Shown piece by piece: positions 1,702 to 31,311 of a stretch of DNA of 64,000 nt. The translations under genes were made by a program, and so were the position numbers. The DNA is from Arcobacteraceae bacterium (GTDB taxonomy: Bacteria; Campylobacterota; Campylobacteria; Campylobacterales; Arcobacteraceae): positions 45,907 through 109,906 of the forward strand of contig CBDCZH010000001.1 in assembly GCA_965224485.1 (NCBI GenBank), read 5' to 3'. Under the pieces are notes generated by a model that was not told the DNA's origin, searched no databases, and saw only the letters and a list, made by a program, of their open reading frames with translations. Position 1 is the first letter of the stretch. Each line of letters starts with the position of its first letter.

Positions 1702-2154
1702 CTAATAATCAGTTGGAAAAATAAGCATAGGCATAGGGTATGGTAACATTAGTGAAAAAAAGTATGATATTAAAAATCCATATACTAAACTATATCCAAG
1801 TATCCAAGTCCATCTAGTTTCACCATGAAAGAATAAGAATAGTGCAATAAATATTACTGTTCCAATATCAAAACCTAAAATTTCTAAAGTAAAAACGTAA
1901 AGTGTAAATAAAATAATTACAGGTAAAACAGTTGTAATATCTTCTTTTTTATCTTTGTCATCTTCTATTTCATCTTTATGGGTAAAAAAATCATATAAAC
2001 ATAAGCATAAAGTTATTGCAGTTATTGGAAGAATCAGTATCATGTTTTCTAAACTACTTGAAGCTCTATGTGCATCAAGTGCATACCATATTACAAAAGA
2101 AGCTAAGCATAGGATTACTATGCTATTAGCCACTCTTTGTTTTGAAAAAGTCAT
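1702..2154 (-). CDS. tctB: Tripartite tricarboxylate transporter small membrane subunit
   Basis: 150 aa, about 4 TM helices, between tctC and tctA. Confidence 0.8.
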   Translation of the reverse strand: MTFSKQRVANSIVILCLASFVIWYALDAHRASSSLENMILILPITAITLCLCLYDFFTHKDEIEDDKDKKEDITTVLPVIILFTLYVFTLEILGFDIGTVIFIALFLFFHGETRWTWILGYSLVYGFLISYFFSLMLPYPMPMLIFPTDY

Positions 2155-2164
2155 TTATCTAACT

Positions 2165-3163
2165 CTATTTTTTTAATAAATAACTATATGATTTAAAAAT
2201 ATCAAATGATTTTAAAATTAACTCATTTGATTTTTCAGGACCAGTCCATGTATATCCAATATTACTTTTTTTAAGAAACTTTTGAACACCTTTTGTTGCA
2301 AGAGTTCTTTTTATTGCATCTTTTAAAGTATTAAATCTTTGGGGATATTTATTTTTAAACTTAGTAGATACTGCAAATCCTCTCATAGAACCTGGAAATA
2401 CTGGAAGTTCAAATCCTAAAGGTTTAATTGCTTCATTTAACGTAGGAGCATCCCATTGTTTCATTCTTTTATCTTTAACTATTGCTAAAGGACGAATAAA
2501 TTCTCTAATACTTTCACTTCCTTGAGCTGAAATTGCGATTAAATCAACTTGCCCACCAGCAACTGCTGTTCTAGCTTTTCCACCAGAACTATAAGTAACT
2601 AAGTTTAAGTTTTCTTGAGGAATATTATATTTTTCTAATAATAGTTTTAAAATTAAATGTCCACCACTTCCTTGAACAACTGCTGCTTTAACTGTTTTTG
2701 GTTTGTTTTTAATTTCATTTAAAAGTTCAACCATAGTTTTAAATTTTGTGTCTTTATTAACAGCTAATAATTCAAAGTCAAACCATTGAATATTTATAAA
2801 TGAGAAATCATTCATACTATATTTAGCTCCACCTGTTAAGATAGTATTTGCTAAGTATGGTGAGAATGTTGATGCAAAAACTGTATATCCATTTGCTGGT
2901 TTTTTAAGTACATAATTTGCTGCAATTTGAGTTCCTGCACCTTTTTTATTTACTATTTTAATTCTTTGTCCTATTTCATCTGAAAGAAAAGTTGACATTG
3001 TTCTTGTCATTCTATCAGCACTTCCTCCAATACCAAATCCAACTACAACATTTATAGTTTTACTTGGGTATGAGTCTGCTTGAATATTGCTTGTTAAAAG
3101 CCCTAAACCTATTATTGAAAGGCTTGCAATTTTTATTGCTGATTTCATCATTGTTTTATACAT
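2165..3163 (-). CDS. tctC: Tripartite tricarboxylate transporter substrate-binding protein (Bug/TctC)
   Basis: Signal peptide; YPSKTINVVVGFGIGGSADR..NKKGAG motif. Confidence 0.9.
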   Translation of the reverse strand: MYKTMMKSAIKIASLSIIGLGLLTSNIQADSYPSKTINVVVGFGIGGSADRMTRTMSTFLSDEIGQRIKIVNKKGAGTQIAANYVLKKPANGYTVFASTFSPYLANTILTGGAKYSMNDFSFINIQWFDFELLAVNKDTKFKTMVELLNEIKNKPKTVKAAVVQGSGGHLILKLLLEKYNIPQENLNLVTYSSGGKARTAVAGGQVDLIAISAQGSESIREFIRPLAIVKDKRMKQWDAPTLNEAIKPLGFELPVFPGSMRGFAVSTKFKNKYPQRFNTLKDAIKRTLATKGVQKFLKKSNIGYTWTGPEKSNELILKSFDIFKSYSYLLKK

Positions 3164-20775: not shown

Positions 20776-22509
20776 TTATTCATATTCGGGTTTTGGTTCA
20801 GCTACCAAAATATTTTCATAATTATTTATCTTATGCTGTGGAATAAACTTTTTAAAATAGTTTTCTAAATTTTTATCATAACAGTATATATAGGTACCTT
20901 TTATTCCTCGATACATAATAGTTTTATAAATATTAATTATGTATTCATGTAGTTGAGTTAAATTAATTCCCGCTTTCCCATTTCTATCATAATAATTTTC
21001 TTTTTTAGTTTCAATTAGTTTTGTTTTGTTATTGTAGATTATATCGCTTCCAAAGATAACTCCAGCGTAGTTTAAATCATAGCCTTGGGTAGTATGTATA
21101 CATCCCATTTCATTCATTTTACTTGTTGAATTAATCCAATCTTTATTTGTTCTATTCCAATATAAATCTACCCCATCAATTATAACATCTGGTTGTGCTG
21201 TTTTATTTGAAATCCATTTCCATGAATATCCAGAAATTGTTCTACATAATCCATGTTTTTTTTCTTTAATACTTAATTCTGTTATCATATCTTTCATTGA
21301 AGCAAAAAGTTTTAAATCATAATTCTTAGATTTCCATATATCTATTTTTTTGTTTGAAGATAAAAGGTTATTAATAAATTTAATATAATCTTCTCCTCCT
21401 TCAACTCTCATTTGAGATTTTAGTTCAATTGTTATGGAGTATGATTTTATTTTGTCAAATTCAGTTTGTTCCACATCTGAAGGTCTAATTGATTGCTTTT
21501 TATCATAAAAAAATAATTGATTATCACTTGAAAGTTGAATCCAATCTAGTTCATTACCTTTCACTTTATCTAAATTAAAAGATTTATTTGTTTTATCGAA
21601 TTCACCATAGCCAGTTATGTTTTTCCTTCTTTTTAATCTATGTGCTTCATCTACTATTAAAATATCATAATAATCATGTTTAACTTCATTTGGCCCAATT
21701 ACTAATTTTTGAGATAATCCGTGAATACTTTTAAATACTTTTTGTAATGTTTTTCTTAAAGATGTCATAGGAATAACAAGTGCTATTTTTAACTCTTCTT
21801 TATTTCTTTTTAGTTTGTTTTTTACCTCTTGAGCTAATTCTATTAAGGAACTAACTTCAAAGTTATCTTCTAAGTCATCACTATTTATATCACTTAATAG
21901 AAGCTTGATAAGATATACTGCAAGTATAGTTTTTCCGGTTCCTGCACTACCTTGAATAAAAGTACTTGTTTCATTTTTTGAATTATTTAGTATAAAAAGA
22001 TATTCTCTTATTGCATTATATTGATCTTCTGATAATTGCTTATATGGTGAGTATTTAAATAGGTCAGAATTTTGAATATTAAGAAGATCATTTTTTACTA
22101 GTTTTTCAAATTGTAAATTCTTCCAAATATTTTGAAAAGTATCTTCATATTTATTCTTTTGATAATATTGATGATTTGAAATACCATCATTTGCATTTAG
22201 AAGTTTAAATTGATTATCTGCAAGCATATTTTGAATTAAACTTGATTCAATATCAAGAACAGAAGATTTATTAAAGTATTGGCTAAAAATAATTTTTATA
22301 TTCTTTAGTTGCTTTTTTTCAGAATTGGATAAATGTTGCTTTACTCTATTTAAAATATTTGTTGTTTCTCCTATATACGCTTTTTTACTTTTTTTACAGT
22401 AAATGATATATACTGTTGGAAAAATATAATATGTTGGCATTTCTTCTTTTATCTGGTTAAATGAGGAATGATCAAAGATATAATCTTTTGTTAAGTATTC
22501 AAATGACAT
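20776..22509 (-). CDS. GIY-YIG nuclease fused to a DUF2075 (Schlafen-group-3-like) helicase
   Basis: VYII..AYIGET..RVKQH; Walker A GSAGTGKT; LIVDEAHRL; GCIHTTQGYDLNYAGV. Confidence 0.85.
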   Translation of the reverse strand: MSFEYLTKDYIFDHSSFNQIKEEMPTYYIFPTVYIIYCKKSKKAYIGETTNILNRVKQHLSNSEKKQLKNIKIIFSQYFNKSSVLDIESSLIQNMLADNQFKLLNANDGISNHQYYQKNKYEDTFQNIWKNLQFEKLVKNDLLNIQNSDLFKYSPYKQLSEDQYNAIREYLFILNNSKNETSTFIQGSAGTGKTILAVYLIKLLLSDINSDDLEDNFEVSSLIELAQEVKNKLKRNKEELKIALVIPMTSLRKTLQKVFKSIHGLSQKLVIGPNEVKHDYYDILIVDEAHRLKRRKNITGYGEFDKTNKSFNLDKVKGNELDWIQLSSDNQLFFYDKKQSIRPSDVEQTEFDKIKSYSITIELKSQMRVEGGEDYIKFINNLLSSNKKIDIWKSKNYDLKLFASMKDMITELSIKEKKHGLCRTISGYSWKWISNKTAQPDVIIDGVDLYWNRTNKDWINSTSKMNEMGCIHTTQGYDLNYAGVIFGSDIIYNNKTKLIETKKENYYDRNGKAGINLTQLHEYIINIYKTIMYRGIKGTYIYCYDKNLENYFKKFIPQHKINNYENILVAEPKPEYE

Positions 22510-22853
22510 TAAATTTCTGTGTACTTTCTAAAGTTTCCTTTAATCTTTTCAATTGGATATTTTTTTTCATTTTTTTTCATCTTTTCTAATATTGCATCTT
22601 CTAAATTTATATCTAATTTCATACATAATTTAATCAGATAAATAGCGATATCTGCTATCTCATCTTTTGTATGAGCTTTATTTTCAATACTTAGATTTTT
22701 AGATTCTTGCTCATCCATCCATTGAAATATTTCATTAAGTTCACCTATCTCCCCAGATAGAGCCATGATTAAATTTTTTGGAGAATGATATTTATCCCAT
22801 TCTCTTTCTTCAGAAAAGTTTTTAATTATGTGCTCTATATTTTTTAAGTTCAT
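22509..22853 (-). CDS. MazG-like nucleotide pyrophosphohydrolase (dCTPase-type)
   Basis: REWDKYHSPKNL, GEIGELNEIFQW, DEIADI, KMKKNEKKYP. Confidence 0.9.
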   Translation of the reverse strand: MNLKNIEHIIKNFSEEREWDKYHSPKNLIMALSGEIGELNEIFQWMDEQESKNLSIENKAHTKDEIADIAIYLIKLCMKLDINLEDAILEKMKKNEKKYPIEKIKGNFRKYTEI

Positions 22854-22960
22854 AAAGTATTCCTAATATAAATTATTATTAAATAATTTTACTATAATTA
22901 ATTAAATTTTTTGCTTATAGAAATTGTTATGATTAGTGAGAGTTTTTCATTTTATTGCAA

Positions 22961-22989
22961 TTGACTTAACTTAATATATCTGATATAAT
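22961..22989 (+). promoter_or_regulatory. Sigma70 promoter convergent on mazF-like gene 1
   Basis: TTGACT-17 bp-TATAAT with TG extension; no + strand gene downstream. Confidence 0.8.
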
Positions 22990-22995
22990 ATTCGT

Positions 22996-23035
22996 ATAAT
23001 TTCCTTCGGGACTGCCCTCTTAATTTTTAAGAGGG
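22996..23035 (+). ncRNA. Candidate structured small RNA, copy 1 (3' end uncertain)
   Basis: ATAATT, then TCC-TTCG-GGA, then CCCTCTTAA-TTT-TTAAGAGGG; stems co-vary with copy 2. Confidence 0.6.
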
Positions 23036-23041
23036 AGAAAA

Positions 23042-23428
23042 TCATAAATCTAATAGCTTTTTTAATTTTTTCCTTAAATTACTAAAATAAGCTTTATTTA
23101 TTACTCCTACTTTTGTATCCAATCTTTTTACATCATAAATTTTAGCTTGTACTAATAGTGCATTACTTTGTATATTATTTAAGTTAAAGTTGTAGAAAAA
23201 ACTTCCCTCTTTTATTTTTGTTGATAAGGGTACACCTAAAAATAAATCCCTATTCAATTTTTGAATTATTAATATAGGTCTTGAAAAATCCTTCCCTTTC
23301 CCATTTTGTTCAGAGCCAATATTTTCACCTATACTTGCCCAATAAATTTCCCTATTTTTTACGTTGATGGTATTTACTCTTTTATCTACTTGTTTTTTAA
23401 CTTCATTCCATTCATCAAAATCTTTCAT
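23042..23428 (-). CDS. PemK/MazF-family endoribonuclease toxin 1, no protein antitoxin
   Basis: REIYWASIGENIGSEQNGKG..RPILII, GVPLST; ATGA overlap with radC. Confidence 0.88.
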   Translation of the reverse strand: MKDFDEWNEVKKQVDKRVNTINVKNREIYWASIGENIGSEQNGKGKDFSRPILIIQKLNRDLFLGVPLSTKIKEGSFFYNFNLNNIQSNALLVQAKIYDVKRLDTKVGVINKAYFSNLRKKLKKLLDL

Positions 23429-24084
23429 AATAATTCTTCTTCTTTAAAAGAGAAAAATCCATCTTTACTAAGTATTACATGGTCTAAAAATTCTATTCCT
23501 AATATCTTTGCACTTGTTTGTAGTCTTTTTGTTATATTTATATCTTCACTACTTGGTTTTAGAATGGAAGAGGGGTGATTATGAGCAACTATTATACTTG
23601 CACAGCGTTTTTGTATTGCATATGAGAATACTTCCCTTGGATGCACCAAGGATTGGTTTAATGTGCCTATACTTATTACTTTTGTAGCTACTATATTATT
23701 TGCTCCATCTAAATAGATACTTAAGAAGTATTCTTGTTTTTTATTATGATACTTTTTTAGGTGAATATATATATCTTTTGCTGTTTTGATTTGTACTTTT
23801 GTTTTACTTAGGTATCTTTTTGATAATTCAAGGGCTGATAATATTTGGGAGGCTTTACTTAAACCTAAACCATGAATTGCTGTTAGTTTTTCTAAACTTA
23901 GGTTTTGAAAGTCTTTTTCAAAAAGTTTTATTATTTCTTTTGATAAATTCAAAACATCTTTTTGTTTTGTTCCACTTCCTAGAATGATTGAGAGAAGTTC
24001 ATAATCTTTTAAAGAAGATATTCCATTTTTGATAAGTTTTTCTCTTGGTTTATCTATATTGTTTAAATTTTTGATTGTTTCCAT
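23425..24084 (-). CDS. radC: RadC (JAB/MPN domain) protein, full length
   Basis: KPREKL, ELLSIILGSG, VHPREVF, HNHPS..PSSED, LDHVI. Confidence 0.93.
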   Translation of the reverse strand: METIKNLNNIDKPREKLIKNGISSLKDYELLSIILGSGTKQKDVLNLSKEIIKLFEKDFQNLSLEKLTAIHGLGLSKASQILSALELSKRYLSKTKVQIKTAKDIYIHLKKYHNKKQEYFLSIYLDGANNIVATKVISIGTLNQSLVHPREVFSYAIQKRCASIIVAHNHPSSILKPSSEDINITKRLQTSAKILGIEFLDHVILSKDGFFSFKEEELL

Positions 24085-24094
24085 TTTCTCTCCT

Positions 24095-24123
24095 TTGACT
24101 TAATAGCCGTTATCTGATATAAT
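24095..24123 (+). promoter_or_regulatory. Sigma70 promoter convergent on mazF-like gene 2
   Basis: TTGACT-17 bp-TATAAT with TG extension; shares TTGACTTAA and TATCTGATATAAT with 22961-22989. Confidence 0.8.
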
Positions 24124-24129
24124 ACATAC

Positions 24130-24168
24130 ATAATTCGCCTTCGGGCACACCCACTTTTTTCAAGTGGG
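24130..24168 (+). ncRNA. Candidate structured small RNA, copy 2 (3' end uncertain)
   Basis: ATAATT, then GCC-TTCG-GGC, then CCCACTT-TTTTC-AAGTGGG, overlapping the toxin stop. Confidence 0.6.
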
Positions 24169-24564
24169 GCTAATTATTCCTCGTAGTTTTAAAATAATTT
24201 CTTCAAAATCTTTTTTATTTACTATTCCTATTTTGTTCATTAGTCTTTTTATACTAAAAACTTTTACTTGTAGTATCATTGCAGAATTTTTAGTTTCACC
24301 ATTTTGTTTATTTGTATATGTAAACTTGTGAAAATAATCATTGTTTTTTATTGTACTGGTAATTTGAACCCCAATAAATAAATCGCTTGTAAGTTTTCTT
24401 ATTATAATTATAGGTCTTGCAAAGTTTTTATCTTTGCCATATTCTTCGCTTCCAATATTCAAACCTATTTTTGCCCAAAATATTTCGCGAGATTTAATTC
24501 CTAGTTCTCTTTCATTTGTAGAACATTTCTTTTTTATTTCATTCCAATTATCGTAATCTTTCAT
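24160..24564 (-). CDS. PemK/MazF-family endoribonuclease toxin 2, no protein antitoxin
   Basis: REIFWAKIGLNIGSEEYGK..ARPIIII, GVQITST; paralog of toxin 1. Confidence 0.88.
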   Translation of the reverse strand: MKDYDNWNEIKKKCSTNERELGIKSREIFWAKIGLNIGSEEYGKDKNFARPIIIIRKLTSDLFIGVQITSTIKNNDYFHKFTYTNKQNGETKNSAMILQVKVFSIKRLMNKIGIVNKKDFEEIILKLRGIISPT

Positions 24565-24634
24565 AACTGTCCTTTATTAGAATAAAGTATAGTATAAAAT
24601 AATTAAAAAAGTAATTTAATTTGGAACTAAACTA

Positions 24635-25192
24635 TTAAAGGGAGCTTTTAATGGATTTTAAAATACTTTCTTGTCGATTTATTTTGGAATCACTTCTTAG
24701 AAAGATACTTGTTAAGTTCTTATCTATTACTTTTATATAAAACTTTTTAATATAGGGATAGCTATAAGTTTTATTCATAGTTTGAGTTGATAGTTTTTTT
24801 ATTGGATAAATTTGCATTAAAATAAAAAGTACAAAAGAGATTACTAATATTGCTTCTAAAAAAGATATGATTTTTGCTAGTAGTATTTTTATTCTTGCAC
24901 TTGAAATTAGGTAATTTAGTGCTTTAAGAATATATTTAAAACTATAAATTAAGATAAGTAAATTGATAAAAAAAGCTAATAATATAGCTATATAATATGT
25001 ATCAGCTCTTAAAATATTTACTTTTGATAAAAAAGTATAAGTTTCATAGGAGAAAGAAGAAGATAAAAATATAAATAAAAATATTTTTATATAATCAAAT
25101 ACTTTTATATACGTTCTTTTTATATAATTAAAATACGAGAAAAAAACAATGGCTAGAAAAAATAACAAATCAATAATAAAGTAATACTTCAT
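24635..25192 (-). CDS. Membrane protein, possibly CvpA-like
   Basis: About 4 TM helices followed by a soluble tail. Confidence 0.5.
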   Translation of the reverse strand: MKYYFIIDLLFFLAIVFFSYFNYIKRTYIKVFDYIKIFLFIFLSSSFSYETYTFLSKVNILRADTYYIAILLAFFINLLILIYSFKYILKALNYLISSARIKILLAKIISFLEAILVISFVLFILMQIYPIKKLSTQTMNKTYSYPYIKKFYIKVIDKNLTSIFLRSDSKINRQESILKSIKSSL

Positions 25193-25365
25193 AACTATCC
25201 TAATTAAAAGAGAATTATCTCATATTTTTGTATAAAATAATATAAATATAAGAAAAATATAAAAAAACTACTAACTTAAGGTAAACTTATTGATATTAAT
25301 TATTAATATAAGTTAACTTTCAAGTAAAATTTAGTAAAATCTTTTAAATAAAAAAGGATTTATAT

Positions 25366-25920
25366 ATGAAAAAAATATTATTAACTGCTGTTTTAGCATT
25401 CGCTTTATTTACTAACTTAAATGCGTATGACTTAGATGGTGATTTAGGTTTAAAATGGACTGGTTTTAAATCAGCAAACAAAGTTGGAGTTGCTGGGACT
25501 TTTAAAAAAGTTACACTTGAAATGAAAAAAGCTGCTAAATTAGCTGATTTCTTAAAAAGTTCAAAAGTAGAAATTGATACGTCTAGTGTTAATACAAAAA
25601 TGGGATTTAGAGATAAAAACATTACTTCTACTCTTTTCAAGCTTGCAAGCTCTAAACTTATCAAAGGTTCAATCTCTTCTGTAAAAGGTGATGATAAAAA
25701 AGGTTCATTAAGTTTAACACTTACTATGAATGAAGTTACTAAAGAAGTACCTATGACTTATGAAGTTAGTGCTAATAAAATTATTGTAAAAGGTAGTGTT
25801 GAAATATTAGACTTTGCTTTAAGTGAATCATTTGCAGCTTTTGCTAAAAAATGTAAAGCTTTTCACCAAAATAAAACATATTCTGATGTAGCTGTTGAGT
25901 TTACTATTCCTTTTAAATAA
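25366..25920 (+). CDS. YceI-family periplasmic lipid-binding protein
   Basis: Signal peptide; WTGFK..GTF; IDTSSVNT..RD; LTMNEVTKEV. Confidence 0.85.
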   Translation: MKKILLTAVLAFALFTNLNAYDLDGDLGLKWTGFKSANKVGVAGTFKKVTLEMKKAAKLADFLKSSKVEIDTSSVNTKMGFRDKNITSTLFKLASSKLIKGSISSVKGDDKKGSLSLTLTMNEVTKEVPMTYEVSANKIIVKGSVEILDFALSESFAAFAKKCKAFHQNKTYSDVAVEFTIPFK

Positions 25921-30051: not shown

Positions 30052-31311
30052 TTATTTTTTTTTCTTTAAAATTACTGTTGTTGAGTTATCTTCTATTAAA
30101 TATTTATTAGCTACTTTTATTATGTCTTTTAATTTTATTTTTTCTATATCTTCTTCATAAGAAAATAAAGGTTTAATATTTCCACGTACAAGATATGAAC
30201 CGTAAAGATTTGCTAAAGAAGTTGAACTTTCTAAAGAAAAAACAAAATCAGCTTTTGTATTTATCTTTATTTTAGCCAAGTCTTTATTAGAAATCTTAGC
30301 TTCTTTTACATCTTTTATAATTTTCAAGAACTCTTTTTCAACATCTTTTGCTTTAACACCTTCATTACAAACAGCTAAAAACATAAAAACACCTGGATCT
30401 TTAAGTTCCATATTATAAGCATAAACAGAGTTTACAAGTTTTTTCTCATCAACTAGAACTTTATGTAAAAGTGAACTTTTACCAGAACTTAATAATTCAG
30501 ATAAAGCAGATAAAGCAACTTGATCTTTATGTTCAAAATTAGGGATATGATAAGTAATAGCTATCATTTGCACGCTTGAGTCTTTATGAATAATTACTCT
30601 TTTAGCCCCATCTTGCTTAGGTTCTATTGTATGAATCTTTTCTATTATTTCTTTTTTATTTTTAATGTCTTTAAAGTATTTTTCACTAGCTTCAAAAACT
30701 TTTTCTTTAGTAATATCACCAGTTACTAGAACAATTGCATTTTTTGGTTGATAATACGTTTCATGGAAATCCCTAATATCTTCAATTTTCCAGTTTTGTA
30801 TATCTTCCATAAATCCAATAGGAGTCCAATGGTAAGGATGATAAGCATAAGCATAGTTAAAAAGTTTAAAATATAAATATCCTGTAGGATTATTATCTGT
30901 TCTCCATCGTCTCTCTTCAGTTACCACATCACGTTCTGGTTGAAACTCTTCATCTTTTAGTGTTAAGTTCTCCATAAGTTCAGAAAATAACTCTAAAGAT
31001 TTATCCATATTTTTAGAGCTTGATTTGATGTAATAATGTGTATAGTCAAAAGAAGTAGAAGCATTATTAACTCCTCCAAAACCTTTTACTATTTCATCAA
31101 ATTCACCAGCTTTTAATTTCTTAGTTGATTTAAAATTTAAATGCTCTAACATATGGGCAATTCCACTTTTTCCCATAACTTCATTTCTTGAACCAACTTT
31201 ATAAAAAATATCAGTTGAAATTACATTTGTATCATTTTCCATAGGAATGGCAACTATTTGTAAACCATTTTCTAAGGTTTTAGTATAATATTTTGGTAAG
31301 CTACTGCTCAT
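30052..31311 (-). CDS. M16-family zinc protease
   Basis: HMLEH (HxxEH), NASTSFDYT; start is ATG 31311 with a GGGGA RBS, and the track's longer start runs through a repeat. Confidence 0.9.
   Translation of the reverse strand: MSSSLPKYYTKTLENGLQIVAIPMENDTNVISTDIFYKVGSRNEVMGKSGIAHMLEHLNFKSTKKLKAGEFDEIVKGFGGVNNASTSFDYTHYYIKSSSKNMDKSLELFSELMENLTLKDEEFQPERDVVTEERRWRTDNNPTGYLYFKLFNYAYAYHPYHWTPIGFMEDIQNWKIEDIRDFHETYYQPKNAIVLVTGDITKEKVFEASEKYFKDIKNKKEIIEKIHTIEPKQDGAKRVIIHKDSSVQMIAITYHIPNFEHKDQVALSALSELLSSGKSSLLHKVLVDEKKLVNSVYAYNMELKDPGVFMFLAVCNEGVKAKDVEKEFLKIIKDVKEAKISNKDLAKIKINTKADFVFSLESSTSLANLYGSYLVRGNIKPLFSYEEDIEKIKLKDIIKVANKYLIEDNSTTVILKKKK

Follow-up and report, generated by a model that had tools for sequence, protein, structure and literature searches.

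How is a MazF-like toxin held in check when no protein antitoxin sits beside it? MazF toxins are the textbook case of type II toxin-antitoxin (TA) systems, in which the antitoxin is a protein. Two such genes lie on the minus strand of a 64,000-nucleotide (nt) stretch of the chromosome of an Arcobacteraceae bacterium, the whole of which we call the window; plain coordinates are positions within it, and the region under study is 22961..24564. From the sequence, an earlier note had proposed that each of the two toxins is paired with a small structured RNA encoded on the opposite strand. We find the same small RNA (sRNA) unit at the 3′ end of nearly all of 93 related toxin genes, and the whole MazF subfamily appears to have exchanged its protein antitoxin for a small RNA.

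By sequence and predicted fold, the window toxins are MazF-family endoribonucleases. Toxin 1 (23042..23428, minus strand, 128 amino acids) and toxin 2 (24160..24564, minus strand, 134 amino acids) match PF02452 with E values of 1.2e-8 and 7.7e-8, scoring 35.5 and 33 bits against the Pfam PemK_toxin cutoff of 23.1, and are 44% identical to each other, in keeping with the two diverged PemK/MazF paralogues of the earlier note. The toxin profile also matches YdcE/EndoA of Bacillus subtilis and MazF of Staphylococcus aureus (E 2e-4 to 1e-3). For an AlphaFold2 model of toxin 1 (pLDDT 80.6), the top-listed matches in a Foldseek search of the PDB were all MazF-type toxins (best E 3e-7; TM 0.66 to 0.78). 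The catalytic residues of MazF are the Arg of an R-P motif and a Ser/Thr in a PL(S/T) loop. R50-P51 is invariant in 37 toxin sequences and aligns with the RP of YdcE; the Ser/Thr position is kept in most of the sequences and is not invariant. The mark of the subfamily is an N-terminal extension of about 24 residues (xFDEWNEVKK), acidic and aromatic, in which W7, N8, and K11 are invariant; its helix was modeled at low confidence (pLDDT ~50). Scans of both toxins with PADLOC and NCBIfam gave no useful match.

Opposite each toxin, on the plus strand, lies the same compact unit, and every part of it that the earlier note described is present. The promoter of unit 1 (22961..22989) has TTGACT at 22961-22966, a 17-nt spacer, and TATAAT at 22984-22989 with an extended TG. 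Six nucleotides farther on, the predicted RNA (22996..23044) begins with AUAAUU (22996-23001), followed in the predicted fold by a UCC-UUCG-GGA hairpin 1 (23002-23011), a CUG linker, a hairpin 2 with a CCCUCUU/AAGAGGG stem (23015-23035), and an A-rich tail; the stop codon of toxin 1 is at 23042-23044. Unit 2 (24130..24180) is built in the same way: its promoter (24095..24123) has TTGACT at 24095-24100, 17 nt, and TATAAT at 24118-24123, again with an extended TG, and 6 nt after TATAAT come AUAAUU(C) from 24130-24135, a GCC-UUCG-GGC hairpin 1 (24137-24146), an ACA linker, and a CCCACUU/AAGUGGG hairpin 2 (24150-24168). This last hairpin spans the toxin 2 stop codon (24160-24162), as had been claimed, and scores as terminator-like on the plus strand. 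The two promoters are the two best sigma-70-like sites found by a promoter scan of 22800-24700, each with 11 of 12 consensus positions; the −35 of unit 2 abuts the ribosome-binding site of radC on the opposite strand. With R1, a covariance model of the unit, the match to unit 1 extends over 22996-23048 (55.1 bits, E 8.8e-16) and that to unit 2 over 24130-24180 (60.2 bits, E 1.1e-17).

R1 was built from a seed of 30 units, for which RNAalifold gave two hairpins with compensatory changes at 8 of the 10 pairs, and it matches 94 sites in 88 sources. In the alignment of 88 distinct rows, 96.8% of the cells are paired, 175 cells are altered on both sides compared with 58.5 in shuffles, and the covariation score is 0.533 compared with at most 0.18 for slid partners, all of these being figures that are flattered by the fitting of the alignment to the model. 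The compensatory stem changes that had been read from two copies are thus upheld in 88 distinct sequences. Among the stem pairs, read on the RNA strand, G·U occurs 42 times and A·C 5 times in these sequences, and because of this asymmetry we place the conserved structure on the RNA strand, opposite the toxin gene. The loop of hairpin 1 is UUCG in 69 of 88 sequences, and the single-stranded 5′ and 3′ tails are conserved in sequence as well.

The promoter is as constant as the RNA. A −10 element with at least 5 of 6 matches is present in 86 of the 88 distinct units and ends 6 nt before RNA position 1 in 77; both −10 and −35 are matched in 67, compared with 1.6% of random positions. In most units, a second −10-like hexamer (TATAAT, TACAAT, or CATAAT) follows 5 to 6 nt after the real −10. 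In the window, it lies at 22995-23000, formed by the preceding base and the first bases of the RNA, and the promoter scan lists it as 22971-23000; it may represent a sigma-dependent pause or an alternative start. Of 183 other genomes in the family, 6 contain the exact motif of the RNA unit, which is absent from the reversed control; at five of the six loci it faces a MazF-like open reading frame (ORF). The unit therefore occurs far beyond chance. A comparison with Rfam had been suggested; the Rfam 15 scan of 22000-25500 at E ≤10 returned three chance-level matches elsewhere and none on the units, leaving this as an RNA family without an Rfam model.

How closely is the RNA tied to the toxin? 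A toxin profile search found 93 MazF-like ORFs in 86 sources. For 82 of them, R1 matches the opposite strand where the ORF ends, and in 6 further ORFs the match falls inside a 3′ extension of about 35 residues, the ORF reading through the RNA gene, so that the convergent RNA is found at 88 of the 93; the downstream RNA that the earlier note had expected in homologues is there. The five ORFs without an R1 match are three with variant two-hairpin units recognizable by eye, one at a contig end, and one long fused ORF; one of the variant units, from an Alphaproteobacteria bin, has both stems fully covaried. Packing against the stop codon is tight: for 73 of 89 pairs, the end of hairpin 2 lies between −12 and +15 nt from it. 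When 151 genomes were sampled evenly across the family, with a toxin threshold of E 1e-12, R1 matches 62 genomes and 17 of 22 genera, and the toxin profile matches 58 genomes; the RNA stands beside 66 of the 92 toxin matches. Toxin ORFs that read through without the usual stop codon (L034:1135-1632, L035, L036:2492-2992, L040, L043, L045, and L050) have a C-terminal extension (..SRPEGN..) reaching to where the next gene starts.

No comparable protein neighbor was found. The start of toxin 1 overlaps the radC stop by 4 nt, and toxin 2 starts 70 base pairs (bp) past a gene for a CvpA-like membrane protein, so that the adjacent, cotranscribed protein antitoxin that is a feature of type II systems was not found at either toxin, as the earlier note had pointed out, and relatives have no conserved partner either. 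Among 50 of the 75 upstream neighbors that were scanned, no small protein recurred. The upstream gene is large and varied, and it is often overlapped by a few bases: the neighbors included 10 HsdM, 6 DUF4391, 5 HsdR or SNF2 helicases, 2 RadC, 2 Cas6, one type III Mod, one type IIG enzyme, and many housekeeping genes (prfB, ilvD, and mqnA). The convergent RNA is the only constant neighbor of these toxins.

Relatives were sought in one genome per species, and 388 stretches encode one. The best 80 of these 388, which were examined, come mostly from Sulfuricurvum, Sulfurimonas, Sulfurospirillum, and Arcobacter, with a few metagenome bins labeled as other phyla. In type I restriction-modification operons, modules are inserted between hsdM and hsdS (L034 and L036); others follow the DUF4391 genes of type III-like restriction systems, and there are tandem arrays of two to three (three in L029). 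A tblastn search of plasmids with the toxin gave 47 records, from Campylobacter (37), Helicobacter (8), and Nitratiruptor (2), and the toxin also matches 7 Campylobacter prophage records. Some modules occur alone on small plasmids.

One of the plasmids is pVir of Campylobacter jejuni strain 81-176, and its pair of pVir0047 and the sRNA CJpv3 is the nearest known relative of the window modules, which we therefore file as new members of a little-known kind. The toxin pVir0047 (CJJ81176_pVir0047) is of the same MazF subfamily, with 48% identity to toxin 1 and the common N-terminal motif xFDEWNEVKK. No other gene of the plasmid is annotated as toxin-like, and, as in the window, no protein antitoxin is annotated beside it. 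Convergent downstream of it are TTGATT, 17 nt, TATAAT (the TTGAxx-17-TATAAT promoter of the window units), and a three-hairpin RNA whose first base we predicted from the promoter and whose terminal CCCC/GGGG hairpin adjoins the stop codon, again as in the window. CJpv3 is an sRNA of 77 nt detected by Northern blotting, running on the minus strand from 31119 to 31043 (Dugar et al. 2013, PMC3656092, Table S12). Its transcription start site (TSS) at 31119(−), classed as antisense to pVir0047, has a step height of 16164 and an enrichment of 7.04, compared with a step height of 28 for the own TSS of pVir0047 at 30608(+) (PMC3656092, Table S5). The CJpv3 signal thus exceeds that of the pVir0047 TSS about 580-fold, and the start falls exactly at the base predicted beforehand, 7 nt after the −10. 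A second C. jejuni locus also expresses the RNA: for CJE1470, the homologue in the CJIE4 prophage of strain RM1221, an enriched antisense TSS falls on the base that had been predicted. Unlike the window RNAs, CJpv3 has three hairpins and no UUCG hairpin, and the pVir module is on a plasmid whereas the window loci are chromosomal. The RNA of a Helicobacter suis plasmid, with a UCC-UUUU-GGA hairpin, an extra hairpin, and a terminal hairpin, looks like an intermediate form; that of a Nitratiruptor plasmid is of the two-hairpin type. Two papers contain passages that describe CjrA, an antisense RNA, as the antitoxin of a type I system carried by pVir (PMC10470494, PMC7826846); the supplement of the latter has no cjrA rows. 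CJpv2 was considered as the sRNA beside the pVir MazF-like gene and was rejected, lying at about 25.3 kb rather than 31.1 kb.

The C. jejuni data also bear on how long the RNA is. The earlier note had allowed that the RNA might run on, antisense, into the toxin gene. A long run of this kind does not agree with CJpv3, a discrete RNA that ends 2 nt past its last hairpin, without a U-tract; between this end and the toxin ORF there are still 5 nt. A heuristic search detected no intrinsic terminator within 330 nt downstream of the RNA in 86 of 91 units, which gives a long antisense RNA with a defined end no support and makes hairpin 2 the more likely 3′ end. Given the terminator-like hairpin 2 of unit 2 and the end of CJpv3 after its last hairpin, the window RNAs are probably short rather than long antisense transcripts.

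Where does such a module stand among known TA systems? In the 3′-overlapping type I systems of Gram-positive bacteria (txpA/RatA, bsrG/SR4, and par/Fst RNAI-RNAII), a convergent cis-encoded RNA complements the 3′ end of the toxin mRNA and exceeds it in amount, the two sometimes have a common bidirectional terminator, and the toxins are small hydrophobic membrane peptides. The geometry in the window is alike, the RNA being encoded in cis and convergent on the 3′ end of the toxin gene, and on this count the earlier claim that the RNA fits neither known class is not supported, the more so as the sources quoted above call the pVir RNA antitoxin type I. The overlap is shorter, however, comprising the 3′ untranslated region (UTR) and a few codons at most; the core sequence of the RNA is conserved across genera; and the toxin is a soluble MazF-fold RNase of 128 to 134 amino acids instead of the small hydrophobic membrane toxin that is typical of, though not universal in, type I. 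Type III systems (ToxIN, CptIN, and TenpIN) have a tandem-repeat RNA upstream of the toxin in one operon. The window modules are like these in having an RNase toxin of related fold, a small structured RNA, and no protein antitoxin, and many of the loci are in a defense-island context. They differ in that the toxins are true MazF/PemK proteins and not ToxN, AbiQ, CptN, or TenpN, and in that the RNA, present as one unit under its own promoter, lies downstream and converges on the toxin gene instead of forming an upstream tandem-repeat array. The module thus lacks the defining features of types II and III that were looked for and has the geometry of 3′-overlapping type I. Weinberg et al. (2017) reportedly described a pemK RNA motif, a structured RNA candidate upstream of pemK genes in Firmicutes. 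Both are structured RNAs tied to pemK-type toxin genes, but the window units are not matched by the Rfam pemK model. In the literature that we could search for MazF toxins with RNA antitoxins, we found no description of this family, with its covarying two-hairpin RNA, its breadth in the Campylobacterota, its embedding in restriction-modification systems, and its orphan copies, though the supplements of Weinberg 2017 and the text of Shen 2016 may bear on it.

The RNA is not confined to the subfamily of toxins just described. The genome of the window (2.79 Mb, 27% G+C) holds four copies of the unit, of which a motif script found three and R1 added the fourth, so the two copies counted in the earlier note are not all. 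The other two, both on contig C15, have intact promoters and no adjoining MazF-like gene, and tblastn at E ≤10 detected no toxin remnants beside them. One (G000:C15:330415-330464, or L001:1216-1265) possesses a hairpin and U-tract terminator of its own, with a HepT/MNT pair and a 43-amino-acid hydrophobic ORF nearby; the other (C15:340533-340585, or L093:1501-1553) has folA/thyA and, on the same strand, a canonical PemK gene in its neighborhood. Elsewhere, the same RNA core convergently faces the stop codon of the gene for a 193-amino-acid HEPN-motif protein (L107:1525-2143, L110:1020-1638, and G154:C35:4335-4953), which is PD-T4-5-like (PADLOC PD-T4-5, E 6.7e-16), has an RxxxxH motif, and ends in ..ELID, like MazF C termini. 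This suggests that the toxin was exchanged on a retained RNA cassette. At L102:1549-2206 and L103:1560-2217, a divergent 174-amino-acid PemK-like toxin follows radC; its sRNA adds further hairpins to the two-hairpin core and carries a canonical bidirectional terminator, the position of which coincides exactly with the toxin stop codon. A unit that likewise has additional hairpins and a terminator of its own (L112:1532-1580) faces a gene for a 473-amino-acid RVT_1 reverse transcriptase (1742-3163).

We imagine that the module works in the following way. The toxin would be a MazF-family endoribonuclease of a distinct subfamily, without a protein antitoxin. An RNA of about 40 to 50 nt would be transcribed from the near-consensus promoter toward the toxin stop codon, with a 5′ tail of 6 to 7 nt, a 3-bp hairpin capped by UUCG, and a GC-rich hairpin of 7 to 9 bp that marks its 3′ end. 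Made in large excess, it would serve as the antitoxin. Any toxin transcript that continued past the stop codon would contain, in its 3′ end or 3′ UTR, the exact complement of this RNA, which could pair there; the duplex would be cut, for instance by RNase III, and the toxin mRNA would then be degraded from its 3′ end. If synthesis of the RNA stopped, toxin would be made. The antitoxin role and the RNA-RNA pairing are our inference. Because the RNA would complement the 3′ end of the toxin transcript, we consider it probable, with real room for doubt, that the RNA is an antitoxin and that its main action is cis-antisense, type I-like regulation. In its favor, beyond this complementarity, are the tight packing against the stop codon, the excess of the RNA on pVir, the type I label given there, and the attachment of the RNA to the HEPN gene. 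The RNA can also outlast its toxin, as at L089, where a remnant of 26 amino acids is all that is left of the toxin. Pairing in trans with the toxin's own translation start was also considered and was rejected, as the cognate energies (−15.75 kcal/mol) were no better than the noncognate ones (−16.32 kcal/mol; 73 pairs, Wilcoxon p 0.28).

Several findings weigh against this antisense reading. Antisense pairing needs neither a conserved 5′ tail, nor a UUCG loop, nor a conserved core sequence, and a UUCG tetraloop is a poor kissing loop. In the 151-genome survey, 28 of 92 R1 matches have no adjoining toxin match at E 1e-12. Of these loci, 14 were examined, and most hold remnants or face divergent toxins: eight have toxin remnants or truncations, two face the divergent 174-amino-acid PemK-like protein (Pfam E 3.6e-14), two face the HEPN protein and one is divergently beside it, and one faces a reverse transcriptase. 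At L102 and L103, the toxin gene is intact, and about 85 nt and the bidirectional terminator lie between it and the RNA core, so that the toxin mRNA may not contain the complement of the RNA. The link to HEPN is seen in only 3 of 33 homologues, which are 95 to 100% alike, and is probably a single event. Expression of the RNA is known from the C. jejuni homologues; the window RNAs are predicted from sequence, and the reach of the toxin mRNA past its stop codon is presumed. An R1 search of the pVir locus with filters off gave no significant match, so homology of the pVir RNA rests on geometry, the terminal CCCC/GGGG hairpin, and the intermediate forms. Finally, the toxin of the cjrA pair was reportedly called cjpT (Shen et al. 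2016); cjpT is probably pVir0047 and cjrA/cjpT the pVir0047/CJpv3 locus, but CJpv2, antisense to another pVir gene, is an alternative for cjrA.

Much of this would be explained if the two-hairpin RNA, as in type III systems, bound the MazF-like protein itself and blocked its active site, with AAUU(C) and the A-rich or AAUC tails as pseudosubstrates, the 3′ end determined by the toxin or by trimming as far as hairpin 2, and the complementarity to the mRNA a by-product of gene packing. ToxN, which shares the MazF/Kid fold, is inhibited by RNA. The conservation of structure and sequence on the RNA strand only, the scaffold-like UUCG hairpin, and the conserved single-stranded tails are in line with such binding, as are the lack of a canonical terminator in 86 of 91 units, the end of CJpv3 just past its last hairpin, the orphan units with promoter and terminator but nothing to be antisense to, and the core beyond a bidirectional terminator at L102 and L103. 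Part of the 3′ tail is, however, toxin coding sequence, which may explain its conservation, and the pVir antitoxin carries the type I label. The type III features looked for are wanting: the toxin is not of the ToxN type, there are no tandem repeats, and the RNA is not upstream. The same core is also attached to an unrelated HEPN-fold gene in three genomes, which fits a portable cassette acting at the RNA level better than a binder specific to one fold. We regard direct binding as rather unlikely. One can envision a mixture, in which a true MazF is plugged directly by a convergent, single-copy RNA with two hairpins and a length of about 45 nt, and antisense pairing is a second layer, the whole being a type I/III hybrid and a restriction-modification-embedded back-up for abortive infection; this, too, seems doubtful to us, and we are similarly skeptical that it would make a fourth, structurally distinct kind of protein-binding RNA antitoxin.

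Less probable still is that the toxin is restrained by a protein, such as a restriction-modification complex or RadC, or by its own N-terminal extension, the RNA only tuning readthrough or, through convergent transcription, insulating downstream genes. PrrC, held within the EcoprrI restriction complex, is a precedent for such restraint. Translational coupling to hsdM, hsdR, or DUF4391 genes is common among the modules, which also occur between hsdM and hsdS, and the extension has its invariant W7, N8, and K11 in an acidic, aromatic setting. On the other hand, the upstream genes, prfB, ilvD, and mqnA among them, are too varied for one partner, some modules stand alone on small plasmids, the N-terminal helix is poorly modeled, and the RNA is the one neighbor that stays. 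The earlier note had raised the chance that the hairpins act only as minus-strand terminators. That they are a mere bidirectional terminator or 3′ stabilizer of the toxin mRNA, with a promoter that is incidental or serves an unrelated transcript, is by now largely refuted, and we would give it hardly any weight. Hairpin 2 does abut the stop codon, and that of unit 2 does score as terminator-like. Yet the excess of G·U over A·C puts the selected structure on the opposite strand, the UUCG loop would be CGAA on the toxin strand, and in 77 of 88 units the promoter stands at the fixed distance of 6 nt. At the homologous loci, the promoters give active primary TSSs (step height 16164 at one of them), and the orphan units lie away from the 3′ end of any gene.

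With the cis-antisense reading as our working model, the pairing described here gives a likely function to CJpv3, an abundant sRNA of C. jejuni, and offers a reason why these toxins are found within restriction-modification operons as well as on plasmids and prophages of Campylobacter and Helicobacter. The family also provides a compact RNA, supported by covariation, with which to ask how an RNA silences an RNase toxin, by pairing or by binding.

The genes around the two modules have features of their own. On the minus strand, the order is toxin 2, radC, toxin 1, a MazG-like gene, and a GIY-YIG/Schlafen-type helicase gene. The radC gene (23425..24084, minus strand) encodes a RadC JAB domain and a UPF0758 N-terminal domain (Pfam). 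A MazF-like gene comes after radC in L002, L006, L008, L032, and L076 as well, and radC is a recurrent insertion site, not a partner of the toxin. Directly downstream of unit 1, at 20776-22853 on the minus strand, a 577-amino-acid protein with GIY-YIG and Schlafen-group-3 helicase domains overlaps a 114-amino-acid MazG-like pyrophosphohydrolase (Pfam, with weak PADLOC matches to PDC-S14, PDC-S41, and AbiO); the two look like a defense gene pair. At 10 or more sites in the same genome (e.g., C3:319, C5:4661, and C10:166073), a repeated element starts with the same sequence of about 90 bp, which is probably the end of an insertion sequence.

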